DNA of 64,000 nucleotides from an uncultured Chloroflexia bacterium (GCA_963737985.1 CAVTUU010000012.1:9157-73156), one strand, 5' to 3'; positions 41,512 through 63,142 are shown, counted from the first letter of the stretch. Numbers and translations are program-made. Notes: a model not told the origin generated them from the letters alone.

Positions 41512-41538
41512 GAGCGTTGGGTCCCACCAGCATTCACA

Positions 41539-41832: not shown

Positions 41833-41924
41833 CCCTTCACACGTTCATCGACACATTCTGCCTGCCCTGCCTGCTGCCTGCCGCCTGCCAAGTATGCCAC
41901 CGGTGGTGGTGAGCTCGACGTGGG

Positions 41925-43055: not shown

Positions 43056-43064
43056 GTTTCGAAC

Positions 43065-43868
43065 CTATCCTTCCGTCGCCCGGGCCGAACCCGGCAGCGG
43101 CTCCTCCGGCAGCGGCAAATGCACGCCGAGGGTGAGGCCACCATCCAAGATGACCGTTTCTCCAGTGATATACGACGCATCGTCGGAAGCGAGAAAGGCA
43201 ACTGTGCTGGCGATCTCCGCTGTCTCTGCAAAACGGCCGAGGGGAACGCGCTTGAGATACTCCGGCGCGCCGACCGGATCTTCGGTAATGAACGCCGCCC
43301 GTGTCTTCACCATACTTGGCTCGATCGCATTCACCCGCACGCCGTAGGGCCCAAGATCGAGCGCCGCCGAGCGGACCAATGCGACGACCCCACCCTTCGA
43401 GGCGTTGTAATGGACCATGTTCGTTTCGACGTAGAACGCGTTGGTCGAGGCGGTAACGACCATCGATCCCTTGCGTGCGGGGATCATCACCCGGGCAGCT
43501 TCTTGAATACAAAAGAAAGTGCCGGTGAGATTCACGTCGATAATCCGCCGCCAGCTCCGTTCCTCGATCTCCAGCAACGGTTGCGCATCCGCAATGCCAG
43601 CGTTCGCGGCAAGAATATCGAGACCACTGAAATGCTCGACGCACGTTTGCACGGCTCGCGCGACATCCGTTCGCAGAGAGATATCGCCGGTGACCGCTTC
43701 GCCCTGACCACCACGTGATTTGATGCCAGCGATGACCTCGCCAACCGAATCGGATTCGAGATCAAGCGCGACGACGCGTGCGCCTTCACTGGCGAATCGC
43801 TCGGCGATTGCTTGCCCAATTCCATTCCCTGCTCCGGTGACCAGCGCCACCTTTCCACTCAACCGCAT
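43065..43868 (-). CDS. SDR family oxidoreductase
   Basis: TGAGNGIG cofactor motif, NAG, catalytic YNASKGG. Confidence 0.9.
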   Translation of the reverse strand: MRLSGKVALVTGAGNGIGQAIAERFASEGARVVALDLESDSVGEVIAGIKSRGGQGEAVTGDISLRTDVARAVQTCVEHFSGLDILAANAGIADAQPLLEIEERSWRRIIDVNLTGTFFCIQEAARVMIPARKGSMVVTASTNAFYVETNMVHYNASKGGVVALVRSAALDLGPYGVRVNAIEPSMVKTRAAFITEDPVGAPEYLKRVPLGRFAETAEIASTVAFLASDDASYITGETVILDGGLTLGVHLPLPEEPLPGSARATEG

Positions 43869-43960
43869 GTATTCGCTCCCTTCATGCGCAATCCGGGACT
43901 TCTAACACAGGCGGCTACAATGTGTCCGGTGACATCTGAAGTACGCCGAGGGATCGATTT

Positions 43961-45580
43961 TTGACGCGGAACATTCCATCTGATATCGAACGCAAGCGTT
44001 TTGATCTTGTCGTCATCGGCGCGGGGATCAACGGTGTCGGCATCGCGCGCGATGCCGCGTTGCGCGGTCTGCGTGTCCTCGTCATCGATAAAGGCGATAT
44101 CGGGAGCGGCACGACCAGCGAATCGACCCGTCTCATTCACGGCGGGCTGCGCTATCTGCAGCACTACGAGTTTGGCCTCGTCCGCGAATCGCTACGCGAG
44201 CGCGAGCTCCTCCTCCGCAACGCGCCCCATCTCGTGCGGCCGATGCCGACGCTCTTTCCTATCTATGAAGGAGCACGGCGCGGACCAAAACTCGTTCGGA
44301 CCGGAATGGTCCTCTACGATGTGTTGTCCTATGACAAGTCGCTGAGCCGCCATCACATGATGGATCACGACCAAGCGCTTGCCAAAGCACCCGGGCTCGA
44401 CACCAGCGGTTTGCGCGCGGCGGCACTCTTCTTCGACGCTCAAGCGACGTTCCCCGAACGGCTCGCGGTCGAAAATGCGATTTCCGCGCGGGACTCCGGG
44501 GCAACAATCATCACCTACGCTCGTGTCGATGGCATCGTGACCGAAGGCGCCGTCGTACGCGGCGTTTCGATCACTGACGTGCTGACCGGAGATTCGTTCA
44601 TCGCTAAAGCGAAGATCGTTGTCAATGTCGCCGGCCCCTGGGTCGATCAGGTGCTGACAAGCGCGCCGAACACCAATTCCCGCGAACATCTCATCGGCGG
44701 TACTCGTGGCAGTCACCTCGTTGTTGCCTCATTTCCCGGCGCTCCCGAGGTTACGCTTTATTTCGAGGCAGGGGCGGATGGCCGCCCGATGATGGTCGTG
44801 CCCTGGAACGGTCTCTTTCTCATTGGCACAACCGACATTCGCCATGAGGGGAATCCGGACGAGGCCCGGGCAAGCGATGAGGAGATCGACTATCTCCTCA
44901 AGGAAACCAATCAGCTCATCCCTGACGCTGGGCTGACAGGCGACGACGTGCTTTACACGTTCAGCGGTGTGCGCCCGCTGCCATTCACGCCGGATGGCAC
45001 AACCGCCGCGATCACTCGTCGCCACATCATCAAAAACCACGCGCCGAAGCTGCGCGGTCTCTACTCGATCATCGGCGGCAAACTCACCACCTATCGCAGT
45101 CTCGCCGAGGAGATGGTCGATCGCGTGTGCGACGATCTCGGCGTCGACGAACGCTCCTCCACCGCGAATTCCCCGCTTGGTCATACTGCCGATTCCTCAT
45201 CGGAAGACATCGGGCTGCCGGGATCGGCCCTCGACCGTCTAGCAGCGGTCTACGGAGACAAATCGGACAGCGTCCTCGATCTGGCCGTAACATCGCCCGA
45301 TCTGCTCGAGCCGTTCTGCCCCGAAACCGGCGCGATCGGCGCTGAGGTCGTCCACGCTGTGAAATCTGAAATGGCGACCACACTCGAAGACATCCTGCTA
45401 CGCCGGACGATGGTCGGATTGGGACCTCGCATGGGCATCGGCGCCGACGTTGCGGCCGCCGCAGTCGCCAAACGCCACCTCGGCTGGGACCAAGCTCGCG
45501 CCGACCGCGAAGTCGACGCTTACCGCGCCGCCCTCAGCCGGTTCCGCCCACGCGCATTGCAAGAAGCCGCCACGACCTAG
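43961..45580 (+). CDS. glpD: FAD-dependent glycerol-3-phosphate dehydrogenase/oxidase
   Basis: DLVVIGAGINGVGIARDAALRG, GTTSESTRLIHGGLRYL, GGKLTTYR. TTG start. Confidence 0.85.
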   Translation: MTRNIPSDIERKRFDLVVIGAGINGVGIARDAALRGLRVLVIDKGDIGSGTTSESTRLIHGGLRYLQHYEFGLVRESLRERELLLRNAPHLVRPMPTLFPIYEGARRGPKLVRTGMVLYDVLSYDKSLSRHHMMDHDQALAKAPGLDTSGLRAAALFFDAQATFPERLAVENAISARDSGATIITYARVDGIVTEGAVVRGVSITDVLTGDSFIAKAKIVVNVAGPWVDQVLTSAPNTNSREHLIGGTRGSHLVVASFPGAPEVTLYFEAGADGRPMMVVPWNGLFLIGTTDIRHEGNPDEARASDEEIDYLLKETNQLIPDAGLTGDDVLYTFSGVRPLPFTPDGTTAAITRRHIIKNHAPKLRGLYSIIGGKLTTYRSLAEEMVDRVCDDLGVDERSSTANSPLGHTADSSSEDIGLPGSALDRLAAVYGDKSDSVLDLAVTSPDLLEPFCPETGAIGAEVVHAVKSEMATTLEDILLRRTMVGLGPRMGIGADVAAAAVAKRHLGWDQARADREVDAYRAALSRFRPRALQEAATT

Positions 45581-45840
45581 AGATTCCCTCATTCGCCGCT
45601 GCGCGGTCTGCGCCCCGCGCGGCCCTAAAGGGATCCGCACTCAAGCGCCGAAGCCCGCTGAAGCGACTGAGATGCGCACCGCCGCATCAACCTGGTAACC
45701 AAGCGGACCCGACCGCATGAACCTAGCCGGTCTTGAGCCGGCTTCGTTCTTTGAGCCCGGCTTCTTTAGGACCGGGCACGTGGCAACGCCGCGTAGGCTC
45801 CAGTCGAATTTACATACAATCAGCTAGGCTGAGAGTCGCG

Positions 45841-46908
45841 CTACTGCAACTTCCCACGCGCGGCGACAGGCCAGACGGTTTCGACGATCCCGTGGCGCAC
45901 ACCGTAGAGCGCTTCGTGGAGGTGAACGACCTGATCGCTGTAACCAATGCCAAGCTCGACCCGCTCGCCGACTCTCGGTTCTGGACAGGGAACGTCCAGG
46001 TAAATCTTGCCGTGTTCTGCCGAGAACCCCAGCGGCTGCTTTACCGCCAGCCCTCGCACGCTCGGTTGGCAGTTGGTCGGATCGATCGTTTTGCGCCCGG
46101 CGTCGATGATCACGCGATCAGGTTTCGGCCGGCTAACGACCTGCGCCATGAGCGTCAGCGCCGGTTCGACCCGTGCGCCGAGGTCGCGATAAATTGAGTC
46201 ACCGAAAACACCGCCACCAGCCTGAACTTCAGTCACGCCCTGGATGCCTGCGGTCACCAAATAGGTCCCCGTCCCGCCACAGGAAACGATGTCGACCGGC
46301 AAGCCAGCTTCGCGACAGGCGTCGGCCGTCGAGACGAGCAGGCCAACGGCCTCCCGAATCGCGGTCTCGCGTTTACCTGGGTCTGCAATGTCCATCGTGT
46401 GGCCTTCCCAGGCCATGACTCCGACAAAACGCAGACCGTCGCAGGCGGCGATTTCGTGAGCCAGGGTGACCGCGTCGACCGGTTCGACACCGCAGCGATT
46501 CATACCGGTGTTGACCTCGATCACGACGCGGGGCCGCGTTCCTTGGCGGCGAGCGGCATCGTCAAGCTGTCGCATCCCCTCAAGTGAATCGACGGCAACG
46601 ATGACATCCGCCTGGCGGCAGAGCGCGGCCAAGCGCCGCGTTTTGATCTCCCCGACGACCTGGTTGGCGATGAGAATGTCGCGGATACCGAGGATGCCAT
46701 CACTTCGGCCTCGCCGAGTTTGGCAACAGTCACGCCGATCGCTCCCGCCGCAATCTCCGTGGGCAATCGCTGGCGTTTTCAGTGCTTTCGTATGGGGCCG
46801 CCATGAGGCGCCAAGGGCCGCGATATCTTGCGCCATGGCAGTAATGTTCGATTCAAGCGCATCGAGATCGACGAGGAGCGCGGGTGTATCGAGTCCACTA
46901 ACCGGCAA
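45841..46908 (-). pseudogene. Alanine-racemase-fold PLP enzyme (D-threonine aldolase / D-serine dehydratase DSD1-like) with an internal compensated double frameshift
   Basis: LLVDLDALESN, RPHTKALKTP, VVIEVNTGMNRCG and the C-terminal beta domain are in frame. Residues 51-74 (46687-46758) read GDCGGSDRRDCCQTRRGRSDGILG, whereas the expected EIAAGAIGVTVAKLGEAEVMA is in another frame (ORF 46521-46766). Confidence 0.7.
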
Positions 46909-47102
46909 CCCAACGAACGACGTCCCGCACTCCCCGCTCCTTCTCTATCTCATCTCATATCCAAGACTTGAGCGGTCAGAATACACCGGGCCGCGAGTTC
47001 ATCGCCGGCTGGGATCCTCAGTTCATCGCACTTTCACTCGTCCTCGATAGGGTGGTCATGCGCGAGGCGGTGCCAACTCAGCTTCATTGAAAGGAAACCC
47101 TC

Positions 47103-48444
47103 ATGGCCACACGAACATTCCTTCCGTTACTCGTTGTAGCGCTCTTGGCAATGATCTGGGCAATTCCGGCTTCTGTTCTTGCTTCGCCGTCGCCCACCGC
47201 TTCATGCGTGAAAGTCGAGTCGAGCGATCGCTGTCTTCCGATCGCGCCAGATAGCAAGCGCGTCGATCTCGGCGCACCGGTTTTCTCGAACCCGAACAAA
47301 CATTACGAACCCGCTCTTCCCGGTCAGCCAGCAACACTCCGTTCTCATCCTCGGCTACATCGGAGAAAAGCCGCTTCGAATCGAAATCACCCTGCTCCCA
47401 AAGACCCAAAGAATCGAGTGGAACGGTCAGCAAACCGAAACGCTGATTTCCCAGTTCGTCGCGTACCTTGACGGCCGAATCGAAGAGGTTGCGATCGACC
47501 GCTATGCCCAGGCCGACGACGGTTCGGTCTGGTACTTCGGTGAAGACGTGTTCAATTACGAGAACGGCGTTGTCGCCGACACCGAAGGGACCTGGCTCGC
47601 CGGGATAAATGGGCCGCCTGCGATGATCATGCCTGCGCATCCACAGATCGGCGACGTCTATCGCTCCGAGAACATGCCCGATTTCGTTTTTGAGCAAGTG
47701 ACCGTCAAAACCATCGATGAAACCGTAAACGGCCCGACGGGTCCAGTCGAGGGGGCGATGGTCGGACAGGAACTTCATCAGGACGGGACGTACGAGGACA
47801 AGATCTTTGCACCAGGCTACGGCGAATTCCGCAGCGCATCGCCGGGTGAGCTGGAAGCGCTTGCGCTCGCTGTGCCCTCCGACGCGCTCGCTCAAGCTGT
47901 CCCAGGTCGAGTGACGACCCTCGCGTCTGGCGCCTCAGACCTCATCGACGCGTCGTCAACCGGCGATTGGGAAGCAGTTCGGGCGACAGTCCAGGATCTT
48001 TCCGCCACGTGGTCCGCGTTTCGCGCGCAGGATGTGCCCGATCTCGTCGAGTACGAGATGAGTGAAGCACTCAACTCACTTGCCGGGGAGGTCGACGCCC
48101 AAGACGCAATCGCCACCGGTCAGGCAGCGATCAACGTCGAGCGCGCCGCCCTCGATCTTCAGTTCCGATATCGACCACCGGTCGAGATTGATCTCGCCCG
48201 TCTCGATCTGATGGTGCGGCAACAACTCCTCGATGCCACGGCCAACGATCCTGCCGGTATCTTGAGCGACGTCACCTTTGAGGAGTTGATTTGGAACCGA
48301 ATCGCTCCGACTGTCGACCAGTCTGTCGCGACGCAAATCGATGCGGAACTGAAGCAGTTGCGGACTGCCGCCGACGCTGGCGACTTCGCGGCCGCGGCGA
48401 AAGGCGCGACGAAGCTGCGAGTGCTGCTGGGTTCGATCAAGTAG
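47103..48444 (+). CDS. Secreted hypothetical protein, interrupted by one frameshift near 47300
   Basis: ORF 47103-47471 starts with the signal peptide MATRTFLPLLVVALLAMIWAIPASVLA. From 47302 the protein-like sequence (ITNPLFPVSQQHSVLILGYIGEKPLRIEITLLPKTQRIEWNG...) continues in the frame of ORF 47548-48444. The C-terminal half is helical. Confidence 0.6.
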
Positions 48445-48454
48445 AGAACCCGGT

Positions 48455-48660
48455 CTTTCAAGCGGCGGGGCTTCCCTCACCCCGGCGGAGTTCCCTCACC
48501 CGGCCCTACGGGCCACCCTCTCCCGTGCGCGGGAGAGGGAGCGACACTAGCGCCGGCCCGGCTAAACGACTCCCCTCTACCTCGCAAGGGAGACTCCCCC
48601 CGGTGGGGGGAGGTGGCCCACAGGGCCGGAAGGGGAGGGGATCAAGGGGGTGAGGGAACT
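48455..48660. repeat. Intergenic CCCTCACCC / CCCTCTCCC...GGGAGAGGG repeat cluster
   Basis: Hairpin at 48516-48539 plus flanking CCCTCACCC and GGGGAGG motifs, related to 38921-39060. Confidence 0.6.
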
Positions 48661-48678
48661 CTTGGTGGAAACCTTCCT

Positions 48679-49092
48679 TTACGCTTCGGTTGTGATGTCA
48701 TCGATGAGCCAGCGACCGCGCTCGGGGGACCAACTGAAGATATAGCGCTCAGGCGGCAAAGCGCCGTTGGGCCCGTACACGACGTTTGCGCTGATTCTGC
48801 CGTCGGGGAGCGTGATCACACTTTCCATATGAGCAACCAGCGATCGATGTTCGTTCGCGCGAACGCCCGGTCCCTGATAGCGCCGAATGAACTCGTCGAG
48901 CGAAAGACCTAATTCCTGCGCGAACTTCTGAAAAAACCGGTCGGTGTAGAGACCGAATCCACTCAGCATCGCGCCGTCATTGGCGCACTCGAGGAGGGTT
49001 GAGACCGTGGCTGAGATTCCGGACGGTACGGAGTTGTCACTCGATCCGCCACTCGCTGGCGCCGTTTGGTCCGATGGTAGGTCACTCGTCAT
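48679..49092 (-). CDS. Hypothetical protein
   Basis: Start placed at MTSDLPSDQ (49092), which overlaps the upstream stop as ATGA. The C-terminal part (VAHMESVITLPDGRISANVVYGPNG...YIFSWSPERGRWLIDDI) looks like a small alpha+beta fold. Confidence 0.5.
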   Translation of the reverse strand: MTSDLPSDQTAPASGGSSDNSVPSGISATVSTLLECANDGAMLSGFGLYTDRFFQKFAQELGLSLDEFIRRYQGPGVRANEHRSLVAHMESVITLPDGRISANVVYGPNGALPPERYIFSWSPERGRWLIDDITTEA

Positions 49093-49643
49093 GGCACTCC
49101 GATCATCACGGCATCCCCTGGCTTGGAAGGCTGAGCTGGCTGTGAAGTTCCCGATCCGCTCCCAGGCCGGGCCGGTTGGACCGCGCCTGCTTCCCACCGC
49201 GCCCACCGCTCCCCATGCACGTCTTCGTGCGGATTCGGGTCGCTCGGTTGACTGGAGGACAACTTCGCCAAGAGTGGCCGAATCAGGTAGGCAATGAGCC
49301 CGATGCCGACAGTCATCGAGACGCCGATCGCAATTATGAGTCCAATCCCGGCATCAGATGCCTGATTGGCCGTTGGCGCGATCGAGAAATGTGGAAGCTG
49401 GTGAAGAACGACTGTTCCGGGCAGCGCCACCACGGCCCCACTCGCTCGATCCGGGCGCCGGCGGAACCTGTGTTGCAACCGGCATTTCGTCATCTGCGAT
49501 CTCGCGATCTCGATTTCATGTCGCTCTTGCGGACTGACCGGATGAGCGAGTTCATCGCCCAGAGCCGGCCAGTCCACCCGCCAGTCGGGTCGCGTCGTAC
49601 CGGAGAAAGGGTCCCAGCACGACACGACCCACCCTAGCGGCAC
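49089..49643 (-). CDS. Hypothetical single-pass membrane protein
   Basis: One clear TM helix (GIGLIIAIGVSMTVGIGLIAYLI). Translationally coupled to the downstream ORF. Confidence 0.45.
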   Translation of the reverse strand: MPLGWVVSCWDPFSGTTRPDWRVDWPALGDELAHPVSPQERHEIEIARSQMTKCRLQHRFRRRPDRASGAVVALPGTVVLHQLPHFSIAPTANQASDAGIGLIIAIGVSMTVGIGLIAYLIRPLLAKLSSSQPSDPNPHEDVHGERWARWEAGAVQPARPGSGSGTSQPAQPSKPGDAVMIGVP

Positions 49644-50113
49644 CCCCCATTCGGGTCAATCGAGGATGATCGCCAGGTGGTCTAGAGTTCCTAGGGGAGA
49701 TTAGTACGCCTACGCGGCCTATTTACCCGGTTTTCCCATGACGGCGGTACTTTAGAACATTCTTGACGCTGGCGTCAGCCGATCACTGTGCCCGCGTTTC
49801 ACAGCCAAATATGACCGCGTGGCTGCGCATATCTCAGTCTGGCTCGGTTGAGTGTCTCGGTCATGATCTGCGTCAGAATCGACCGCGACAGCGCGAGGCG
49901 CTCATGTCAGGTGCCTAAGGGTTTCTCAGTATGGCACACTGGGCCTGAGCGTCTCAATTGTGGTCGGAATTCGGCAACGCAAACCGTTACACAAAGGTCG
50001 AAACTGTCGAGTGTCAATCTCGTCGTCATTGGGGAAACCAAACACTAGGCGAGCGCGATCTCGAGCGTCAGACCGCGGAACTCTTCTCGCTCCGGTGACA
50101 AGAGCAGCAAACA

Positions 50114-50263
50114 TCAACCATCGTGATCGACCCACCACTCGTCAATGTAGCCGCGGCGTTCACGAATGGCGTCTTGCAGATCGCGCTCCTCGAGCGAGGT
50201 GTCGACGCCGGCGCGGGCGATAGCTGCTGCGAGGTCAGGGGAGAATCTCTTGGACAAGGTCAT
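50114..50263 (-). CDS. Hypothetical 49-aa protein (below the ORF-track cut-off)
   Basis: ATG at 50263, TGA at 50114-50116: MTLSKRFSPDLAAAIARAGVDTSLEERDLQDAIRERRGYIDEWWVDHDG. Lies 36 nt downstream of the DUF4411 gene on the same strand. Higher GC than the islet. Confidence 0.3.
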   Translation of the reverse strand: MTLSKRFSPDLAAAIARAGVDTSLEERDLQDAIRERRGYIDEWWVDHDG

Positions 50264-50299
50264 GCGTGAGTGGTTGCTTGAGAGTATGCGTAATCCTGC

Positions 50300-50773
50300 T
50301 TACTCAAAAATCCAGCCTTCTGTAGTCACAATGTCGACCATTCGGCCATGAGGAATACCGTAACGATTGCAAATAAAAGGAATCTTTGGGTTTTCCTTTG
50401 ATCCCGCGTGCTCGCCACAAAGCACTTTCAATCCTCGGGTCTTTGCAAGTGCAATGACCCACGGATCGGCGGGATCCGGTCTGGTGTGTTTTCTTGAAAG
50501 CGCCGGAAAATCACGCGCAATTTCATAGAAGACTTTTAGTTGTTCCATATCACGGTCCACAAACATTTCTCTATGCTCCCTGACCCAGCGAGAGAGATCG
50601 TCGTCTCGTTCCTGAAGTTCTTTGTACACCTGTATCGGCGCAACAAGCCGACCCGCTTTTACGAATTCAGAGATGCGGCGCCAGGGTGCGACAAAATTCT
50701 TGGCTGGAAGGTCACTATAATACGCCGCGGTGAATTCGCTCGTGTCTATGCAATAAGACTGATCATTAGCCAC
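50300..50773 (-). CDS. DUF4411-family PIN-like nuclease
   Basis: YCIDTSEF...APWRRISEFVKAGRLVAPIQVYKELQERDDDLSRWVREH...ADPWVIALAKTRGLKVLCGE...KIPFICNRYGIP follows the DUF4411 pattern. GTG at 50773 behind GGAGAGGGAAG, overlapping the upstream stop by 8 nt. Confidence 0.75.
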   Translation of the reverse strand: MANDQSYCIDTSEFTAAYYSDLPAKNFVAPWRRISEFVKAGRLVAPIQVYKELQERDDDLSRWVREHREMFVDRDMEQLKVFYEIARDFPALSRKHTRPDPADPWVIALAKTRGLKVLCGEHAGSKENPKIPFICNRYGIPHGRMVDIVTTEGWIFE

Positions 50774-51949
50774 CTTCCCTCTCCAGCACATTGACGAGCT
50801 CCGGAACGTGCTTGAATTTGAGGTTCAGGTAGGAACTGACTTCTAGGGAGAGATGTCCGCCTGGTCGTAAGCGCGCAGTACCGAAGTGATGAATCGCCGA
50901 CCCAAATGCCGAATAGTGTTTTCGTACGGATTTCCCCAGACCTCGGCCTTGTAGCTTTCTGGGCTTTTGGCTTTTGATATCTCGCGTTGAAAATCCGCTT
51001 CCATTTCGCATAGTGCTGCGCGACGTTTTCTCGAGTGTGACAAGCCGAAGAAGCATCGCTTCCTCACTCACCCCATAGCGGTCAGCAATCGTATGAGGTC
51101 GCGCCCTGACCATTTTGTCCGCGGACCCGCCTCGGCGATGATCGGATCTTGCAAGAGGACGTGCTTCGGCATAAGCGCGGCCGCGGCAACTGCGTTGCAA
51201 TACCGCTCCAGCGACTCATTTGATTTATTTCGGCCGCTATATTGATCCTGGAGATCGCAAATGCCGCCGCGCCGGAGCAAGATATGGACGAGCTCATGCA
51301 AAAGGGTGAAGAGCCTGCCTCTTGCTGAGTCCCGGCTATTTAGCGCTATTGCCGGAAAAGGGAAGGTTCCAATTGAGAACCCACGCATCTGATCAATGGG
51401 GATTCCAGGTACGTGAGTGACCAGAATCCCCTTCTCTTCAATGAGTGAAGACCAAAATGAAAGCATTTGACCAGGGGTACGCTGAGTCTCGGGAACCTGA
51501 TCAACGTTGAGCCACGTCCTAATTCTCTCTCCGGACTTTTCGGGATCACTGTCCAAATCGAGCCGAAGATCAATTTCGGACGGCTGAGCTTCTGCCTCCA
51601 TCTCAACAAAGTCGAGGAGGATCTCCCGCTCACCGAGCACACGGCGATGGGCCTTGTGCAATTCGGGCGGCCATGCACGTCCGTGATTCTCCGGGAGGAG
51701 ACGGAAGTCGGGGAGACTCTCGGCGAGCGCCGGAGGGGTATCCAGAAAGAATGAAATCAAGGGCCGATCATAGAGATCAGCCATGTTCTCGAGCGTCGCC
51801 AACGGAACCGAGAGCTCGCCCAATTCGTACAGCCCAAGGTCTGAGGAGAAGATATTCAGGCTCTTGGCCGCATCCTGGGGCGAAATGCCAATGGATTCTC
51901 GCGCCCATCGAAGAACAGATGGAGCGGCCTCGACTGACAACACTGCCAT
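50766..51949 (-). pseudogene. XRE-family HTH fused to ImmA/IrrE (COG2856, M78) zinc metallopeptidase; three frameshifts in the C-terminal third
   Basis: HTH region LRWARESIGISPQDAAKSLNI. HEXXH as LLHELVHIL. The C-terminal helical domain is split over ORFs 51068-52000, 50766-51200 and 50843-51067, with shifts near 51090, 50995 and 50850. Confidence 0.75.
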
Positions 51950-52093
51950 TTCCCGCCCCCTTTTCAGCAAGTTGTGCTCGTTCGTGGCACATACTAACAC
52001 CAGCTTTCAGTCGGCAACAGACTTCCTCTACCAATTGCTAAAACCCGATTTCAAGTGCGTCAGCGCGCCCTTGATTTTGAGCACCAGTCGGAC

Positions 52094-52135
52094 AAACGAA
52101 CGGCGGCCATCACCTCGACGAGCCGCCGTTCGCTT
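52094..52135 (-). terminator. Terminator-like hairpin downstream of the Ig/IPT-repeat ORF
   Basis: 12-bp stem ACGAACGGCGGC/GCCGCCGTTCGT-like with a 14-nt loop, followed on the minus strand by TTTGTCC. Confidence 0.35.
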
Positions 52136-52275
52136 TGCACATTAGCCGAGAAATAATTCTTAATCTATTCCGCTACCCAGTTTTGATATGCCTCGACTCA
52201 AGCCCCACCCCCAACCGGCCATCGCCGATAATCTTTGTCACCGGATAACGGATGACATTACATCGCTCGTGCGTA

Positions 52276-53664
52276 TCAGTTGCCGTCTGGTGGAACCGTC
52301 TTCTTCACGACACTGCTCCACAACAACTGGTCCTGGCTGACTTTTGGCGGGACCTTCCTCCCGTCGGTGGCCGAAAAATCGAGCGTCAATCCCACAAGAA
52401 TCGCTCCTTTGATCTCGTAATGAATGGTGCCGGCTTTGGGACCCGGACCGGGCTCCGATTTGGTTTGGTAATATTTATAGTTCTGCACGTCGTCATCCCG
52501 GACAACCCGAATCCCAACGTTGTTGCCTGGCGCGAAACCGCTTCCCGTAACTGCAAACGTCGCGTTTGATGACGGTCCCTTGTAGTCGACTTGAATAATC
52601 GGCGGGGCCGGTAACGGTGGTGACGGTGGTTCCAAGACGTGTAACTCAAGCAGGTTAGAGGTAGATGTCTGTCCGCCGGGTTTCGGGTAGACGATGCCCA
52701 CCTGATAATCACCATGCGATGCAACACTATACTCGGGGATTATGGTCCGCAGTTCTGTGTCGGAGACAGTGTCTGAGTTTCCGAATCCATACGTGGAAAA
52801 TCAGATGTTGAAGCCTTCACGGAAGAATTGGCCGCGGGCTGTGAGGTGGAGATCCCCCTTTCCTTCCTCTACCGCGTTGGGTATTAGCTCCGCCAAGATT
52901 GGTGGCCGGTATTCGACCGTCGTCGCGCCCTCCATGCGTGAATAATCCCCACAGAACCTGATCATCCCGTAAATGTGGTGGTCAAATAAGAGTGGCTTGA
53001 CTCCTTTGAAGATGACCGAAACGATCCCGCTTTCACTTGACGGCGCTTGGCCACTGGCGATCGGCTTGAGTGGGTCTGCTTGATCCCACAGTTCGATGTC
53101 GACTCCGGCTGAAACATTCACTACCGTCATCGACGTGTCCCCGTCATAAAGCGGGTCCAAGATGGCGCCATAGTGGAGCCCACCGGTTAGCAGTACCGTC
53201 TTCGGATCCGAGACTTGCACTTGGCCGCAGGCTTGATGCACCGCCGTGATCTCGTGGTCCTGGGAAAGCGCCGGGGCGACCCGTATATACATCTGGTCAC
53301 CGGTCACGGGCTCGGGATTTGAAATCGGTCCACTCCGGTTAGAGACAACGGTGATAGTTCCAGCCAGGGGAAATATGTCGTGTACCGTGACCACGTTCTG
53401 GCAATCGAAGAGGTTGCCGAAGATGTTTGGTTTGTGAAGCGGTCCGAACTCAAAAGGTGTCTGCGAATTCGACCAGTCGCTCCAGTGATCACACTCTCCT
53501 TGGCGAACGCGCACAAGGCAGCCCGGTTGCATTCCAGGCGCCGTTCTCGGCTTATCAACATCGGTGGCTACGGTGCGAGAAAGAGTTGTTTGCCCATTGG
53601 ACTCGACGGAATATTCGACATCTGCACCAGGTTTGAGACCCCGGACAATTATTGTGGATGTCAT
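52276..53664 (-). pseudogene. Hypothetical Ig-like/IPT-TIG repeat protein, split by a single in-frame TGA at 52801-52803
   Basis: ORFs 52801-53829 and 52276-52701 are in the same frame. The 33 codons between them are open and protein-like. The stop falls inside an IPT-like domain (IPNAVEEGKGDLHLTARGQFFREGFNI*FSTYGFGNSDTVSDTELRTIIPEY). No signal peptide. Start uncertain. Confidence 0.55.
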
Positions 53665-54414
53665 ATGGCAATGAGCCGGGCCTGGATGGTTCCGACCTCT
53701 TGTGTTTGTCCGCCACGCGTGCGCAGCAGCGTCAAGGTCGCGCCGGGGGAAGCGTCCTCGAAAATTACCGAGCGGCTGCATTCCGATAAGGGACCGAAGA
53801 CTTTGGGGGGAAGGAGTTCCATCGATCATCCTTTATGAATGAGGCGATGACGCTTTCTAAGGCAGCTGCGATGTTCGCGGCGGCTACCGTGATCGTAATG
53901 CGACATTATCGATTGATTTCCATCCTAACGTAAACAATTGCTGGGGCTCTCAGTAAAAAATGCGTATTTTGCTGAGATTGATTGGTGCAAAGTAGCGGAC
54001 ACCGGACAGCTGACTGTCCGGTTCCATGGGAGACAAGAGGCGGTAATTAATCGAGGAGTAGACTTTTTGACTTGCTGCCCATCGCATCCAATCAACTGTC
54101 GACATTATTACTTCGGGTGATTCTTCGAGGCCTCAGCTAGCACAGCCAATTTTGATGCCCGTTGTTTCATATGGCACGTGAGATATGCGCGACTTGAGAT
54201 AACGGTTGAGAGTTTCGATCTACTTTCAAATCCGCCTCCGTTCCAAGTAAGGCTGTCCAGCGGATACACGAAGCATTAACGCGTTTGGGATCTTTCGGAT
54301 GTACGATGAGCGCCTTATACTGGGTGAACGTACACCTGGACAAGGTGGGGAAGGAGCGTTGGTGAAAAACGCGGAACGAACCGTCGAACAAACTCGGGCT
54401 CGGGGTAGAACCAG

Positions 54415-55134
54415 GTGACGAAGAGCCCGGCCCCTCTCATCGTTTTTCTCCCAGGTTCGTGTGGTCAACTCGTGCCGGACTTGCAATCGACGTTCGTCAC
54501 CGTGGCTCCTAGCATTGACCTAGTCGCGGGAAAGATCGACCAAACCGGGCACCTCGCCGCTGCCATCCTCGCAGGCGATCCTGTCGATGTTTTCATCTCG
54601 GCTAATCGCCGATATATGGAGCAGGTTCGCGATGCAGGCTTGGTGGGCGACTTCTATGTCTTCGCGCGCAATGCACTCTGCATGTTCGTGCGCAAGGAAC
54701 GCGTTGGCGATATCAATAACCTCGCGGATATCGGTCGATCCGACGTTCGCACGATGGTAGCGCCGGCGGAATCCGATCCTGGCGGCGCCTATACCGTTGA
54801 ACTCATAGAACGCGCGGAGCTAACGGGGATATTCGAGGAACAGAAACAACGCGGAAACATCATGGTCGCCGGAACCGGCCGTCCAATGCCTGAATTGATT
54901 GCGAGTGGTGAAGTCGATGCGATCATCCTCTACCGGTCGCTCGCCGGTAGGTTTCCGGATTTTGAGGTCGTTCTGCTGCCTCCAGAATTGGACATGAGCG
55001 ATCGCAACGTCTTCACTGTCGGCGCGATCGTTCGGGACGGCCGAAAGCATCCTATGGCAGATGCGTTCACAGTCATGCTGTTCAGCCCCGCTGGTCAGGA
55101 GTTGCTCGAACGAAACGGTTTCCTCCCCGCTTAA
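54415..55134 (+). CDS. ModA-like (molybdate/tungstate type) periplasmic-binding-fold protein lacking a signal peptide
   Basis: LIVFLPGS...GDPVDVFISANRRYMEQVRDAGLV...FARNALCMFVRK resembles ModA-family SBPs. GTG start. Confidence 0.6.
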   Translation: MTKSPAPLIVFLPGSCGQLVPDLQSTFVTVAPSIDLVAGKIDQTGHLAAAILAGDPVDVFISANRRYMEQVRDAGLVGDFYVFARNALCMFVRKERVGDINNLADIGRSDVRTMVAPAESDPGGAYTVELIERAELTGIFEEQKQRGNIMVAGTGRPMPELIASGEVDAIILYRSLAGRFPDFEVVLLPPELDMSDRNVFTVGAIVRDGRKHPMADAFTVMLFSPAGQELLERNGFLPA

Positions 55135-55203
55135 ATCTGACACGACGAGTTTCTGCAACCAGTTCGTGATGTGATGGAGCTAACTGCAATAGGGAGCCAA
55201 ACG

Positions 55204-55779
55204 ATGAGTATCGACGATGAAATCGATCAACTCTCGGGACAGATCGGTGAATTGAAGGCGAAGCTTTCCGAGGCGCGCCGCCGGCGACCGGCCGAGCCGG
55301 TCAACGATTACGACCTGATGAACCAGGACGGATCGACGGTGAAACTCTCGGAGCTTTTTGGCGACAAGAACGACTTGCTGGTTGTCCACAATATGGGCCG
55401 GGGCTGCGTCTATTGCACCATGTGGGCCGACGGCTTCAACAGCATGACCCCACATCTTGAAAACCGCGCTGCCTTCGTCGTCGTCTCGCCAGACGAACCT
55501 GCGGTCCAATCGGCTTTCGCCAAGTCTCGCGGTTGGACCTTTCGAATGGCCTCGGGTGCGCAAAGCGACTTCATCAAGGACATGGGATTTCTCTGGTCCG
55601 ACTCCAATGACAGCGGATATCAGCCTGGGATTTCAGCATTCCACCGCAACGACGACGGCTCAATCGTTCGCACCGGCAAGGACGAATTTGGACCCGGAGA
55701 CGATTACTGTCCCGGCTGGCGCATGTTCGATCTGCTCGCCGGCGGCGCCGGCGAGTGGGAACCGAAATACAGGTACTAA
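55204..55779 (+). CDS. DUF899 thioredoxin-like family protein
   Basis: N-terminal coiled segment, then LLVVHNMGRGCVYCTMWADGFN ... PGISAFHRNDDGSIVRT ... YCPGWRMFDLL. Confidence 0.7.
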   Translation: MSIDDEIDQLSGQIGELKAKLSEARRRRPAEPVNDYDLMNQDGSTVKLSELFGDKNDLLVVHNMGRGCVYCTMWADGFNSMTPHLENRAAFVVVSPDEPAVQSAFAKSRGWTFRMASGAQSDFIKDMGFLWSDSNDSGYQPGISAFHRNDDGSIVRTGKDEFGPGDDYCPGWRMFDLLAGGAGEWEPKYRY

Positions 55780-55834
55780 CGTCGACTACCTGCGTGTCGA
55801 ACTTGCGGTAGCCGTCGCTTGAGCTTGTCGGCTC

Positions 55835-56599
55835 TCAGGATGCGAAGCGAGCGCTGAGACCGCCATCGACGAGAATCGTCGCTCCCGTCATGAAACTCGC
55901 TTCGTCGGAAGCGACGAAGGCGATGACATTCGCGATCTCGTCGGGGGCGCCTATCCGGCCCATCGGGTGCTGCGCGAGGATGCTCGCTTCTGCTGCGACT
56001 GGATCGGGTTGCATCTCGATATTTTCCTGGACAAGGCGAGTTCTCGTCCATCCGGGGCAAACCGCGTTGACCCGTATTTGATCCGATCCATAATCGAGCG
56101 CGAGACTACGAGTGAGACCAACGAGCCCCGATTTTGCGGCCGCGTAGGGGAACATGTTCTTCATCGTCATGAAGGCGTGGATTGAGGCGTTGTTGACGAT
56201 CGAACCGCCGCCGGCCTTCTGCATCTCCGGGATCGCGTACTTCGCGCAGAGCCACGCGCCCTTGAGATCGACGCCAAAGACATGCTCCCAATCGACGTCG
56301 GTCATCTTGACCGCGTCGTGGTAGGCATTAATACCGGCGTTGTTGACGAGAATATCGAGTTTGCCGAAGCGAGCGACGGTGGCTTCGACTCCGGCCTTGA
56401 CCTGATCTTCCTTCGTCACGTCGGCGATCTGAACGAGCACCTGTTCGAGATTGAGCCCATCGACCGCCGCGCGTCCCTTGGCCTCATCGCGGACGAATGA
56501 GACGACGTTTGCCCCCTCCGCGACGAACTTTTCGACGCACGCTTTCCCGATCCCAGTCGCCCCACCGGTGACGATCGCGACCTTCCCCGCAAGCCTCAT
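55835..56599 (-). CDS. SDR family oxidoreductase
   Basis: TGGATGIG, NNAG, catalytic YAAAKSG. Start at MRLAGKVAIVTGG. Confidence 0.9.
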   Translation of the reverse strand: MRLAGKVAIVTGGATGIGKACVEKFVAEGANVVSFVRDEAKGRAAVDGLNLEQVLVQIADVTKEDQVKAGVEATVARFGKLDILVNNAGINAYHDAVKMTDVDWEHVFGVDLKGAWLCAKYAIPEMQKAGGGSIVNNASIHAFMTMKNMFPYAAAKSGLVGLTRSLALDYGSDQIRVNAVCPGWTRTRLVQENIEMQPDPVAAEASILAQHPMGRIGAPDEIANVIAFVASDEASFMTGATILVDGGLSARFAS

Positions 56600-56898
56600 C
56601 GCCCACTCCCTCACATGGCCGCATCGACCCGCCCATTGCGCGTCGTTGGAAACCTATTTTCACCAAGGACGATGGATGGTAGGGCGCGACCGGATACGTG
56701 TCAATTTGGAGCGACCAAAGCCACTTTCTTTGAACTCAGGCATGCCGCGGGTTGCTGAAAACAACGAAGCCGATCTGACGCTCTTTACCTGACCAGCCCA
56801 AGTCGACTCTGAATTGCCGCTAGAGCCGGCACACGCTTGTGCGCCACTGACGGAAAGTTCAGTCGTGTATGTCGAGCCACTAATTCGGATGCCGAATG

Positions 56899-58777: not shown

Positions 58778-60169
58778 ATGTCCTCAGCTTATGAGCATGT
58801 CGAATCTGTCGATCAGAAATCAGTACCCAGGATTTCAAGACGGTCACTTCTTCGTTCGGCAAGCGCAGTGGGAGCTGCCGCCGCGGTCGGCTCTCTCGCC
58901 TCCGTGTCCTCCACATCGGCATCGCCAGCTTCAGGCGCTAAGCCCTTCACGCATGCGCAAGCACAGGACGCTGTTGAGCTCAAACTGAACGCGAGAACCG
59001 GTAGCGAGCAGCAGATATTCGAGGGGTTCATTTCGCAGTTTACGGAGCAGAATCCCAATATCAAGATCACCGGCCAATATTTCACTCCCGACAATCAAGA
59101 GTATTTTCAGAAGATCGCTGTGCTCATCGCGGGCGGCACAGCCGGCGATCTCATCTGGATCTCGAGCATCGAGGGGTACTACGACTACGCCTCCCGGGGC
59201 ACCTGGCGCGCGCTCGACGATTACATCACCAAGGATGCAATCGATAACACTCAGTGGTACGACGCAGCGGTGAGCATGCTCAAGGTCGGTGACGTCTCCT
59301 ACGCGCTCCCTTTGTGGTCTCACCCGTCGATCGTCGGTCTCTACTACAACAAGGATCTTTTCGATCAAAACGGTCTCGCCATTCCCGACGACACGTGGAC
59401 GACGGATAACCTCGCCAATGCAGCAATCCAACTAACGAAGCGCACGGGTGACACGGCCGATTTGCTCGGTTACGCGCCAGCTGTCGGATTCTTCAACGGC
59501 CTCTGTCAAGTCCTTCCGAGTTTCGGCGGCAATCCGATCTCTGCTGACGGAAAAACTATGACGTTTACGGAAGACGCGTCGAAGGCCGCAATACAGTGGT
59601 TGGTCGATCAATTTGTCACCAACAAAGTGACTCCGACTGCGGGATCAACCTACGACACCAACAATGACACGCTGATGTCCAGCCAAAAGATGGCCATGAG
59701 GGCTAATGGTTATTGGGGCCGGTGGGGCGCTAAAGCAACCTGGGAATTCAACTGGGGAGTGTCGCCCATGGCGAAGGGGCCGGCCGGTACAAGCGGAGCC
59801 ATGCTGCAGACGGATTCGGTACCGCTGAACAAGACCACCAAGCACCCAGACGAAGCGTGGGCATTCCACAAGTTCCTCTCCACCAAGGATGCTGGAATGT
59901 TTCTCTGGGAGCAGAACTACTTGCCCGGATCGCGGCCGGACGTTTGGGAAGATCCGACCTTGATGGCCGACGAGGGGCACGCGGTCTACGCCAATCTGAT
60001 GAAGGACGCAGCGCCACTCTACTATCCAGCCAACTATCGATTCCGCGAGTTCGAAGTCGCGATCAATCAAGAGATGACGAAAGCTTGGCTGGGTGACGCG
60101 AGCGTGGACGAGGCGATCGCCAGTGCGACGAAGGCAGGGCAAGACATCCTCGACAAGGGCCCGGCGTAG
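58778..60169 (+). CDS. Sugar ABC transporter substrate-binding protein (family 1) with Tat-type signal
   Basis: ISRRSLLRSASAVGAAAAVGSLA, then a typical carbohydrate SBP body. AGGGGGAAG RBS. Confidence 0.85.
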   Translation: MSSAYEHVESVDQKSVPRISRRSLLRSASAVGAAAAVGSLASVSSTSASPASGAKPFTHAQAQDAVELKLNARTGSEQQIFEGFISQFTEQNPNIKITGQYFTPDNQEYFQKIAVLIAGGTAGDLIWISSIEGYYDYASRGTWRALDDYITKDAIDNTQWYDAAVSMLKVGDVSYALPLWSHPSIVGLYYNKDLFDQNGLAIPDDTWTTDNLANAAIQLTKRTGDTADLLGYAPAVGFFNGLCQVLPSFGGNPISADGKTMTFTEDASKAAIQWLVDQFVTNKVTPTAGSTYDTNNDTLMSSQKMAMRANGYWGRWGAKATWEFNWGVSPMAKGPAGTSGAMLQTDSVPLNKTTKHPDEAWAFHKFLSTKDAGMFLWEQNYLPGSRPDVWEDPTLMADEGHAVYANLMKDAAPLYYPANYRFREFEVAINQEMTKAWLGDASVDEAIASATKAGQDILDKGPA

Positions 60170-60247
60170 GTCGGAATGAGCCTCTAAAGGTCTGTGAGGC
60201 ATGCGTCGACGAACTTCGACGCATGCCTCCACAATTCGTCGGGGGTT

Positions 60248-61213
60248 GTGCCTGTGGGCGTCGTTATAGCCCTGCCGAAGAAGCGCTTTGGCACGAGGCG
60301 GCTGTCGCTTCGAGCCCGAGACAACCTGGTCGGCTACCTCTTCATTCTTCCCGGTGTATTGGGATTTCTGATCTTCAGCCTCGGACCCATCGTCGCCGCT
60401 TTTCTCATGAGCTTCACCGACTACAACATGATCGAGAAGGCGAACTGGGTTGGGATTCGACAATTATTCGCGTGCGCTTTTTCACGATCCGCTGTTCTGG
60501 CCTTCGCTCAGACGGACCATCGTCTACGCCCTGCTCAACGTTCCAATCGGTATTGCGCTGTCACTCGCAGTGGCAGTGCTTCTGAACCAAAAACTACGAG
60601 GGACATGGCTTTTCCGAACCCTCTTCTTCCTCCCGTCGGTCGTGCCAACTGTTGTCGCCATTCTTTTCTGGGTCTGGCTCATGAATCCAGACTTTGGACT
60701 TCTGAACTACATCCTTAGCCAGTTTGGTATTCAGGGGCCAGCCTGGTTATCCAGTACGCCGCTGGGCGCTCCCGTCGCTGGTTTTCATGGACTGGTGGTC
60801 GAGGTCGGCGGCACCAGAATGATCATCTTTTTGGCGGCGCTCCAAGGATCTCGCAAGATCTGCTTGACGCCGCTTCGCTCGACGGCGCAGGGCCATTGCG
60901 CCGGTTTTTTGGCGTCACGCTCCCGCTCATTACTCCATCGGTGTTCTTTGTCACGATCTTGACCGTCGTTGCATCTCTGCGCGTGTTCACGCCAGCGTAC
61001 ATCGCCACTGACGGCGGGCCGAGCTATGCAACTTGGTTCTATGGTTTCTACATGTTCAAGGAGGCGTTCCAGTTTTTCGAGATGGGATACGCGTCCGCCC
61101 TGGGATGGCTCTTCTTCATCATCATCTTTGGTCTCACGATATTGCAATTCCGGTTGCAATCCCGCTGGGTCTACTACGAAGGGAACGTGCATGACCGTAA
61201 GAGACGCTCATAG
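60248..61213 (+). pseudogene. Sugar ABC transporter permease (MalF/UgpA-like), at least four frameshifts
   Basis: LVGYLFILPGVLGFLIF (frame of 60194), FDNYSRALFHDPLFW... (60450), WALPSLVFMDWW (a third frame), GTRMIIFLAALQG, then DLLDAASLDGAGPLRRFFGVTLPLITP (frame of 60896). Confidence 0.8.
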
Positions 61214-62077
61214 TCCCTCGTCACCTCTTCGCAACGGTTTGCGCATCAGCGGGCGGATCATCCTCTATCTTTTAGCGGTTCTGCTTGCCATCGTCTTTGC
61301 CATTCCAGCCTATTGGACAATGGTCGGCGCCTTCAAAACCGTGACAGAGATTCGCCACATCCCCCCAATCTGGGTCCCAAGCACATGGCATTACGAAAAC
61401 TTCCACCAGGTCTGGCAGACCGTTCCCTTCGGCACCTTCTACAAGAACACGGTCATCGTGACCGGATTGGCGACACTTGGTCAGGTGTTTACTGCGGCCG
61501 TCGTCGGTTACGGATTTGCTCGCTTTAAGATGCCCGGCGGCAACATCTCTTTCTGCTGATCCTGAGTACGATCATGTTTCCGCCGGAACTAACGCTCGTG
61601 CCGACATTTGTGCTCTTCAAGCACTTGCATTGGCTTGACACGCTCAAACCACTCATCGTGCCGTACTGGTTTGGCGGTGGCGCGTTCTTCATCTTCTTGT
61701 TCCGACAATTCTTCATGGCGCTTCCACCCGATCTCATCGACTCAGCTCGACTCGATGGCGCCGGGCACTTCCGAGCGTTTATGGAGATTGCGGTCCCGCT
61801 GACTCGACCCGCCTTTGCCGCGGCCGCGATTATCTCGTTCTTCTACCATTGGAACGATTTCATTAATCCGCTGATCTATCTCAACAGCAGTGAAAACTAC
61901 ACGCTCGCGCTTGGTCTGCGAGCGTTTACGACAGGCGAAGTTGGGCTCTCGGGGGTGCCGGAAGATAATCTCTTCATGGCCGCTGCCGTCATGATGATCC
62001 TGCCAACCGTTCTCATCTTTATCGTTGCCCAACGCTATTTCATTCGCGGGATTGTCGCGACGGGAATGAAAGGATAA
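61191..62077 (+). pseudogene. Sugar ABC transporter permease (MalG/UgpE-like), one frameshift near 61545
   Basis: The N-terminal half is in the frame of ORF 60969-61559. The EAA-loop half (DSARLDGAGHFRAFMEIAVPLTRPA) is in ORF 61574-62077. Confidence 0.8.
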
Positions 62078-62079: not shown

Positions 62080-63082
62080 ATGCGCGTTAAGCGGGTTTCG
62101 TTTGTAAACAAGGCAGAAGCCGCGCTCGTCGACGAGGAACTCGATGCCGAGAACATTGGACCCACTGACGTTTTAGTCTCAACAGAAGCGAGCCTGATCA
62201 GCCCAGGCACAGAAACGGCAACTTACCTCGATCTCACTTTGCCAGATCGTATTGATCCGCCCGCATTCCCGCGACGGGTGGGATACGCAAACGTTGGCCG
62301 CGTCGTTTCAGCCGGGGTTGATTCGGGTCAAGCCAGGCGATCGCGTTTTTTCGATGGGCAACCATGTATCCGCATTCCGCATCGACACATCTCGCCAACT
62401 GTGCATCGCGGTACCGGAAAAATTGTCCTCGCCCCATGCGGCCTTTGCCCGAATGGCAGTGGTCTCAATGACCACGCTTCGCACCACCACTGCTCGCTTG
62501 GGAGATCGCGCCGCCGTCATTGGACTCGGCCTCGTCGGCAACCTCGCTGCCCAACTCTGCCAGATCGCCGGGATGAAAACGTCCGCGATCGACCTCGACC
62601 CATCACGCCTGGAAATCGCCGAACGAAGCGGTATCGGCTCAGTGCATTCCGCCGCTCCCGAAGATTTCCGGAGCACGTTTCAACTCGTGATTGAAGCAAC
62701 AGGATCAACGAGCGGCGGCGTTACCGCCGCCAATCTCGTCCAGCCGGGCGGAGAAGTGTCGATTGTCGGCACCCCTTGGGGCGCAGGTGATCCATCCTTG
62801 GGCGCTCATGCGCTCCTCGGTCGCGTTTTTGTCGGCTACGTCACTGTGCGCAGCGGTTGGGAGTGGCAAATTCCTATCCTGCCGCAGAAGCACCAAGCGA
62901 GTTCATTGCAATTGAGCGCTCGTTCGATTTTGGACTGGTTGGCAGAAGGGCGAATCAAGGTCGATCCGTTGCTTACGCATGTCGTCTCGCCCGCCGACTG
63001 TGACAAGGTTTATCAGGGCTTTGCCAATCGCACCGGTGGCGCCCTTGGCGTCGTCTTCGATTGGACATCTATTGCTATCTAG
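62080..63082 (+). pseudogene. Zinc-type (MDR) alcohol/sugar dehydrogenase, one frameshift near 62325
   Basis: GPTDVLVSTEASLISPGTE and GYANVGRVVSAG are in ORF 62080-62694. VKPGDRVF and the Rossmann motif VIGLGLVGNLAAQ are in ORF 62252-63082. Confidence 0.75.
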
Positions 63083-63142
63083 AAGCAGCGCGCGTCATTC
63101 GCCCCAACTGCAGCAGCGAGCCTCCGAACGAAGAGCAAACAA

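Follow-up and report, generated by a model that had tools for sequence, protein, structure and literature searches.

This report concerns a 64,000-nucleotide stretch of DNA (the window) from an uncultured Chloroflexia bacterium (GCA_963737985.1, CAVTUU010000012.1:9157-73156), and in particular two adjacent minus-strand genes at positions 50300-51949, counted from the first letter of the window. We interpret these genes as a two-gene type II toxin-antitoxin (TA) or abortive-infection module of the VapBC52 kind, with a RosmerTA-like arrangement, carried in a lineage-specific block of about 6 kb, and we consider the breaks in the reading frame of its antitoxin gene to be most likely artefactual; to this interpretation as a whole we assign a probability of roughly 0.68. 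A preliminary description of the same DNA had placed three genes on one strand of this region, which is the minus strand, at coordinates that hold, and had proposed a TA or abortive-infection function for two of them, a proposal now supported by full-length homology to VapBC52 and by an antitoxin-first layout of two overlapping genes. The module is made up of the following features:

50300-50773, minus strand: toxin of the VapC52 type, a PIN-like nuclease of the DUF4411 family, intact and 157 aa long when read from its GTG (Pfam and PDB matches).
51068-51949, minus strand: antitoxin, the frame-intact N-terminal 293 codons (Pfam, PADLOC, and alignment to PDB chain 9vzy_A).
50766-51090, minus strand: antitoxin, the C-terminal ~105 codons, readable only with four frame changes (three-frame translation, tblastn, and direct reading of the DNA).

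The comparison that anchors this assignment came from a search of solved structures, which found PDB entry 9vzy, a complex with both partners. Together with 9vzz, it represents VapBC52 of Mycobacterium tuberculosis, in which Rv2515c is the VapB52 antitoxin and Rv2514c the VapC52 toxin (Singh et al., Nucleic Acids Res, June 2026, PMC13273310). The toxin gene of the window is intact, and its product, earlier assigned to DUF4411, matches that Pfam family (PF14367) over the whole profile, positions 1-159 of 159 (E=1.3e-26), as well as the chains 9vzy_D (E=3.4e-18) and 9vzz_A (E=1e-17), both of which are named 'DUF4411 family protein'. The acidic residues expected of a PIN-like nuclease are kept on alignment to 9vzy_D and to two cassette homologues: D10, E52, D103, and E121, numbered from the GTG, are conserved, D10 being equivalent to D6 of VapC52. 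The canonical PIN model PF01850 scores 18.7 bits on the toxin, under its cut-off of 23.6, and a metagenome scan with the DUF4411 protein returned one match, a distant one. A Shine-Dalgarno-like GGAG motif lies 8-11 nt upstream of the toxin GTG.

The antitoxin gene had been described as a fusion of an XRE helix-turn-helix (HTH) domain with an ImmA/IrrE-type peptidase, and profile searches agree: its open reading frame (ORF) matches Peptidase_M78 in Pfam (E=3.5e-12) and HTH_31 at a level under the Pfam cut-off (E=1.3e-4), and its homologues carry HTH_3. As sequenced, this ORF stops after 293 codons, at a first premature TGA at 51068-51070. The intact codons hold the XRE HTH, the DFR ('FR') motif, HELVH (HEXXH), the switch cysteine (GGICD), and the glutamate zinc ligand (SLERYCN), the last four of which align with the corresponding residues of 9vzy_A; the HTH and HEXXH parts are still readable, as the preliminary description had said. 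The remaining ~105 codons, which take in the middle domain's HTH sub-domain together with the C-terminal helical domain, are interrupted by four frame breaks, each equivalent to a 1-nt deletion: the first near 51089, between DLIR and IADRYGVS; the second near 51022, between TSR and QHYAKWKRIF; the third within 50945-50990, in a Lys-rich linker; and the fourth near 50846, at tct cc / c cta. The frameshifts noticed earlier do exist in the sequence, and all fall within the final ~330 nt of the gene, but they number four and not three. After repair, the protein (~395 aa) aligns through residues 10-391 with 9vzy_A ('HTH cro/C1-type domain-containing protein', 393 aa; E=9.4e-58) and reaches the end of that chain. 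Homologues of 384-409 aa are 44-47% identical to the frame-changing reconstruction over 98-100% of its length. Every repaired segment is open and keeps the family motifs, with no stop codon in any of them.

The repaired frame ends in a TAA at 50766-50768 and overlaps the toxin GTG (50773) by 8 nt (GTGGCTAA), the overlap originally described, and the pair forms an antitoxin-first bicistron with overlapping stop and start. Elsewhere, in four loci (L006-L009) and one JGI contig, the intact cassette consists of two genes only, with a 4-nt overlap in L006-L009, and stands among unrelated housekeeping genes. On viral contigs of IMG/VR, a DUF4411 gene lies directly downstream in 20 of 25 ImmA-like loci, and four of the five loci without one end at the contig edge. 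In none of L006-L009, the JGI contig, or the IMG/VR loci is a gene of the IPT kind found beside the ImmA-DUF4411 cassette.

That the trigger and mechanism of such pairs are not defined, as the preliminary description held, is out of date, since the homologous VapBC52 has both structures and a published mechanism. VapC52 cleaves tRNA as a PIN-domain nuclease and is bound, as a dimer, by a single VapB52, whose C-terminal four-helix domain blocks the toxin active site; single-stranded DNA (ssDNA) renders the M78 peptidase of VapB52 active via a cysteine-switch loop, upon which VapB52 cuts itself at the conserved FR motif and the toxin is freed, and over-expression of VapC52 shields M. smegmatis from phage D29 (PMC13273310). 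By homology, the ~395-aa antitoxin of the window would bind a dimer of the DUF4411 PIN nuclease (1:2 antitoxin to toxin), its XRE N-terminal domain anchoring the toxin and its C-terminal helical domain covering the active site. ssDNA arising from phage infection or DNA damage would then open the cysteine-switch loop over the HEXXH zinc site, the peptidase would cut its own chain at the FR motif, and the released toxin may cleave tRNAs, leading to growth arrest or abortive infection.

The module lies in a segment that is missing from the closest relative found, a Thermomicrobiales metagenome-assembled genome (MAG) whose locus L010 encodes a GlpD to which that of the window is 77% identical; recA is also present in the window. 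Positions 1-15608 of L010 are colinear with 33767-49796 of the window, and L010 15566-16375 then corresponds to window 55826-56632 (tblastn, tblastx), a gene here called SDR2, at 84% identity. The intervening block holds a small-ORF region, the TA pair, a remnant of an IPT gene, a 585-nt spacer, a ModA-like gene, and a DUF899 gene, and the features that accompany the TA pair are these:

49766-55831: the variable block itself, ~6.07 kb, absent from L010, where the two flanking genes are ~160 bp apart.
52094-52135, minus strand: terminator-like hairpin (inverted repeat I23) that separates the antitoxin gene from the IPT remnant, with a stem of 13-14 bp followed by TTTGT.
52276-53822, minus strand: IPT/TIG protein remnant (pseudogene), with 44 codons in 53822-53691 and the rest in another frame at 53670-52276.
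53830-54414: spacer of 585 nt, lowest in GC (0.494), with no recognisable gene or mobility remnant.
54415-55134, plus strand: divergent ModA-like solute-binding protein without a signal peptide (Pfam SBP_bac_11, E=4.7e-37), absent from L010.
55171-55779, plus strand: DUF899 / thioredoxin-like protein (Pfam DUF899, E=2.8e-22; AhpC-TSA, E=1.8e-11), absent from L010.

The preliminary description had pictured a lower-GC islet at 50270-54414. This islet is absent from L010, but the borders of the variation are 49766-55831 and not 50.3-54.4 kb. The islet does have the lowest GC (0.533) among all 4.1-kb stretches in the window (mean 0.588, standard deviation 0.021), a value that 0.4% of these stretches reach, and its tetranucleotide distance is at z=2.1. 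The islet stands out well from the left flank (0.594) but little from the right flank (0.56), and the figure of about 60-72% earlier given for the flanking genes was overstated; counted in 60-nt lines, median GC is 0.53 within the islet, as against 0.62 to its left and 0.57 to its right. For the block of 49766-55831 as a whole, GC is 0.547, as against 0.594 for the syntenic left flank. By GC at third codon positions (GC3), the DUF4411 gene is the sole gene of the islet to stand out, its 0.468 being the lowest of 28 genes measured; the ImmA and IPT genes, at 0.61-0.62, fall in the range of ordinary genes, YfhO and XylTIM being examples, and the ModA-like and DUF899 genes (0.63 and 0.70) are near host values.

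The absence of an integrase, a tRNA, and a clear att repeat, which had been remarked on before, was upheld by a tRNA scan, a repeat search, and a family search of the ORFs: there is no tRNA in the 64-kb window and no integrase or mobility-gene remnant among the ORFs of the block, and searches for att or target-site direct repeats and for inverted repeats at its borders gave chance-level matches only. The junction alignment with L010 contains no target-site duplication, Rfam has no match within the block, and promoter and terminator scans stayed at background level. The genes of the block occur in none of 80 GlpD-anchored loci.

Presence or absence of the block is judged against one syntenic relative, L010, and would fit insertion here as well as deletion there. 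Composition and content favour acquisition, the GC3 of 0.47 of the toxin gene being the clearest signal. That the block is instead ancestral and was deleted in the L010 lineage, without horizontal acquisition in that of the window, is possible but rather unlikely. It would accord with the single syntenic relative, synteny being lost in more distant ones, which leaves no outgroup, with the lack of integrase, tRNA, att repeat, and target-site duplication in the window and junction searches, with the near-host GC3 of the ModA-like and DUF899 genes, and with the origin of the nearest homologues of the ImmA and IPT proteins, which are themselves from Thermomicrobiales and Chloroflexota. It sits less well with a stretch that is the lowest in GC of the window and includes so low a GC3 in the toxin gene, with a content of the kind expected in accessory DNA (TA module, pseudogene, orphan-like ModA), with a second synteny break immediately right of SDR2 that marks a zone of plasticity, and with the mobility of the ImmA-DUF4411 cassette elsewhere, where it is found among unrelated housekeeping genes and on viral contigs.

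Beyond that second break (window ~56650 onward), which leaves SDR2 as a conserved gene between two variable segments, L010 (16556-21614) carries a cation-diffusion-facilitator-like gene and ABC sugar-transport genes, and the window a xylose-isomerase-like TIM barrel, GntR, and sugar ABC transporter genes. Within the block, directly downstream of the toxin gene, an ORF of 49 aa (50114-50263, minus strand), which may be non-coding, has a stop that overlaps (GTTGATG) the start of an ORF of 62-70 aa (49926-50138, minus strand) in a TA-like layout. Neither could be assigned to a family in NCBIfam or Pfam, the former giving a chance-level Pfam match only.

An intact nuclease beside a frameshifted regulator had at first looked like a puzzle, namely how the nuclease is held in check. 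A survey of the window argues against this puzzle, since indel-only breaks of the same kind occur in about eight other genes, DAHP synthase among them. In total, at least 18 frameshifts fall in about 10 of the ~55 genes, against one in-frame stop, and at least 14 of these frameshifts, in about eight genes, are outside the antitoxin gene. The segments on either side of each break are open and well conserved. The frame-broken genes elsewhere in the window are located as follows:

272-2163, 6836-7940, 47082-48444, 60150-62077, 62080-63082, and 63083-64000, plus strand, and 48679-49643, minus strand: genes with frame breaks, the segments on both sides of each break being open. The break sites themselves lie at 0.8-1.8 kb, ~7.49 kb, ~47.30 kb, ~49.15 kb, 60.4-61.5 kb, and ~63.63 kb.

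The ABC exporter at 272-2163 (plus strand) contains at least five frame switches, two of them ~90 nt apart. DAHP synthase is read in two frames, which cover positions 12-101 and then 105-253 of the Pfam profile, with an extra A in GAG-A-CTG. A single 457-aa ORF of L010 corresponds to two frames of the window (unk47) through a single extra base (CAAACATT versus CAAG-ATC), downstream of which 381 codons are open and 84% identical to L010, and a 318-aa ORF of L010 is likewise split (unk48/49). Two ABC permeases are split, with at least three frame breaks together, as is one Cpn60-like gene, and probably also an ADH-like gene. The spread of these breaks suggests a draft assembly with a high load of indel errors.

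Real pseudogenes gather nonsense and missense changes alongside indels, and breaks that consist of indels only, at about one per 3-4 kb and in patches, are characteristic of insufficiently polished long-read metagenome assemblies. By the general logic of TA systems, moreover, selection should work against a catalytically complete toxin paired with an antitoxin that is really cut short. Because at least 14 further frameshifts occur in ~8 other genes, against one nonsense codon, the breaks in the antitoxin gene do not appear specific to it and look like consensus errors. We therefore consider it quite likely that all four are consensus (indel) errors of the draft metagenome assembly and not biology, in which case the module would be intact and ordinary and the 'unchecked nuclease' probably an artefact.

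Several points weigh against this interpretation. The four breaks, every one of them a deletion, fall within ~240 nt, whereas the window as a whole has on average ~1 per 3.4 kb, a far lower density, and two of the four sites lie outside homopolymers. The IPT neighbour has lost 254 codons and contains a TGA, which is hard to ascribe to consensus error, so that real decay does occur in the block. The repaired C-terminal part of the antitoxin has an identity to homologues near the bottom of what occurs naturally, two of 27 homologues being lower, which also fits some neutral drift. The probable artefactual nature of the breaks was judged from the assembled sequence, and the VapBC52 mechanism is carried over from a homologue in another phylum with moderate similarity.

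These points lend some weight to the alternative that the breaks are real and the module is decaying, which we hold to be unlikely. The antitoxin gene would then be a pseudogene. Its product of 293 aa would retain the peptidase core and the XRE domain that binds the toxin, but would lack both the middle domain's HTH sub-domain and the C-terminal domain that occludes the active site. The toxin might be tolerated through lost translational coupling or polarity (the stop being ~300 nt upstream), through sequestration by the N-terminal domain, or through non-cognate antitoxins. The four breaks cluster downstream of the first premature stop, with none in the 880 nt upstream or in the 474-nt toxin gene, a distribution that fits selection on these two parts and neutral drift in the rest. 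Decay also has a precedent in the neighbouring IPT gene, which looks like a genuine pseudogene, and the block is accessory and compositionally deviant. In VapBC52, an antitoxin construct without the C-terminal domain retains the ability to pull down VapC52, which non-cognate VapB proteins also neutralise (PMC13273310). What speaks against decay is the presence of fresh, indel-only breaks of a like kind in about eight other genes of the window, including housekeeping genes, and the condition of the repaired segments, which have no stop codon and no clear excess of substitutions: the ratio of C-part to N-part identity is 0.85, compared with 0.78-1.05 in 27 intact homologues. The toxin, moreover, has its own GGAG motif, so that lost coupling alone would not silence its gene, and the truncation, as mapped by alignment, would remove more than the C-terminal domain, which makes a stable neutralising product doubtful.

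A specific form of this alternative, in which all four deletions are real and the gene encodes a natural VapB52-like antitoxin cut after its peptidase core, beside a catalytically complete DUF4411 tRNase, is quite improbable. If true, it would amount to a natural experiment, in which the XRE domain alone, lost coupling, or cross-neutralisation is enough to keep the toxin harmless, or else the toxin would have been released to act constitutively or in a hair-trigger role. Our preferred interpretation of an intact module with artefactual breaks carries a practical caution, namely that an antitoxin gene in a draft MAG that looks like a pseudogene calls, before anything else, for a comparison with how many frameshifts the entire contig carries.

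The third minus-strand gene of the region is, in our reading of its sequence and neighbourhood, an unrelated decayed gene that lies outside the TA module. It had been described as a plain orphan ORF of 460-520 aa with IPT repeats, a view that its homologues overturn. These (P0002-P0017) belong to a ~760-aa Chloroflexota family known from metagenome bins, with lengths of 694-791 aa and 33-43% identity. In a tblastn comparison with one of them, P0004, residues 1-44 correspond to 53822-53691 and residues 299-684 to 53670-52486, in another frame; 254 codons (family positions ~45-298) are missing, and the reading frame changes where the two parts meet. A TGA at 52801-52803, in frame, lies within the stretch that matches the IPT/TIG domain of P0004. 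Selenocysteine incorporation or another form of recoding at this TGA was considered and rejected, the gene also having the frame change and the 254-codon deletion. In profile searches, the window copy has no match to Pfam TIG, and P0004 matches at residues 559-642. No ImmA or DUF4411 gene occurs in the neighbourhoods of the IPT homologues. The gene is not part of the module because its homologues sit in such unrelated contexts and the intact ImmA-DUF4411 cassettes elsewhere consist of two genes; the hairpin at 52094-52135 suggests in addition that the IPT remnant and the antitoxin gene are separate transcription units. The ~760-aa family itself (L001 8001-10319; L004/L005 8001-10277) has no signal peptide, one IPT/TIG domain, and variable C-termini, and it shares a conserved N-terminus, M-x-L-L-P-P-R-V-x-G-P-L-S-E-C-S-R-S, and a strongly conserved VRVRQGECDxWSDWS.

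In the adjoining spacer (53830-54414), small ORFs gave no Pfam match at E<=1, the spacer has no Rfam match, and no remnant was found there of the 230-aa gene that precedes the IPT homologues. The ModA-like gene that follows is, on its position and alignment, cargo inside the block, as the DUF899 gene would be, and not a host gene cut by an insertion. The preliminary description had taken its lack of a signal peptide to fit an insertion at this edge; the signal peptide is indeed absent, but the gene lies inside the block and is not clearly truncated, because its product aligns from position 6 of the 246-position NCBIfam model NF002918 (positions 6-245). A stop codon stands directly upstream of the gene. 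The ModA-like protein has almost no close relatives: a word-based search of 5.8 billion proteins returned, apart from the query, a single fragment of 159 aa with 78% identity, and a genome-collection scan gave no match.

Three further observations concern other parts of the window. A canonical PIN-domain (VapC-like) ORF at 9897-10322 on the minus strand (Pfam PIN, E=2.2e-11) may be a second toxin gene, of the classical VapBC type. A near-threshold Rfam match to the serC leader at 48565-48623 on the minus strand (34.5 bits, the gathering score being 35; E=1e-4) falls in the gap where two genes converge, and a terminator hairpin is the likelier explanation for it than a leader. A giant ORF of 2364 aa at 28007-35101 on the minus strand, the 3' part of which is conserved in L010, has a strong AT skew (about -0.2) and deviates in tetranucleotide usage more than anything else in the window (z~3); it probably encodes a repetitive surface protein.

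Returning to the TA module, its relation to known systems can be stated at several levels, the first of which concerns whether it is a TA module at all. That the ImmA/IrrE-like protein is a stress-response protease-regulator of the IrrE/DdrO or ImmA/ImmR kind, with the DUF4411 protein an unrelated nuclease, is very improbable: its M78 core does also match IrrE chains in the PDB (E~1e-8) and capP in PADLOC (E=7.7e-9), but the full-length match, including the toxin-contacting N- and C-terminal domains, is to VapB52 (E=9.4e-58) and not to IrrE, adjacency and overlap with DUF4411 are conserved across dozens of loci, and no separate gene for a repressor substrate adjoins. CapP/CapH of the cyclic oligonucleotide-based antiphage signalling system (CBASS) and IrrE/DdrO of Deinococcus do share with the VapB52 type an M78 peptidase that has a cysteine switch or zinc site and is activated by DNA damage or ssDNA. 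CapP and IrrE, however, cut a separate repressor and thereby turn transcription on, whereas in the type found here, by homology to VapB52, protease and substrate would be one chain and the output would be release of a toxin.

RosmerTA (RmrA/RmrT; Millman et al. 2022; Ernits et al. 2023) has the same kind of antitoxin, an HTH joined to an ImmA-type zinc peptidase. Toxins can be exchanged in these systems, and the partners noted for the ImmA/Rosmer antitoxin hub include PIN-like ones (Ernits et al. 2023); the characterised RmrT toxins include membrane-depolarising proteins and not PIN nucleases, whereas the toxin of the window is PIN-like. A scan for defence systems divides along the same line: eleven RmrA models of PADLOC match the antitoxin (best E=3.6e-12), and no PADLOC model, RmrT included, recognises the DUF4411 protein at E<=0.01, so that rules of the PADLOC type would not call a complete RosmerTA here. 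Canonical VapBC systems, which pair a PF01850 PIN toxin with a small (~8-13 kDa) antitoxin of the ribbon-helix-helix (RHH), AbrB, or Phd type, differ from the window pair, the antitoxin of which is ~395 aa long and has a peptidase domain. Three-component COG2856/DUF955-HTH-PIN systems have been predicted (Makarova 2009; Matelska et al. 2017, family DUF4411.1), and DUF4411.1 shows exactly the arrangement of the window, downstream of a fused HTH-DUF955 gene, with no difference of substance, as a prediction only.

The closest of all is VapBC52 itself. It belongs to Actinomycetota, and the window copy, of moderate sequence similarity, to Chloroflexota/Thermomicrobiales; the last ~105 antitoxin codons are out of frame as sequenced, which is probably an artefact, and the stop/start overlap is 8 nt here. 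In both, a large antitoxin gene comes first and a DUF4411 PIN toxin gene second, and the antitoxin has an XRE N-terminus, an FR motif, a HEXXH M78 peptidase, a switch cysteine, a glutamate ligand, and, in the window after repair of the frame, an HTH sub-domain and a C-terminal helical domain. Both window proteins, the antitoxin in its repaired form, are homologous to their VapBC52 counterparts over the full length (E=9.4e-58 and 3.4e-18), with the PIN acidic residues conserved. The significance of a cassette in a strain-variable 6-kb block goes little beyond annotation, and the module would represent a known kind of system in a new lineage, that is, a Chloroflexota/Thermomicrobiales example of the VapBC52 / ImmA-PIN ssDNA-sensing TA defence modules.

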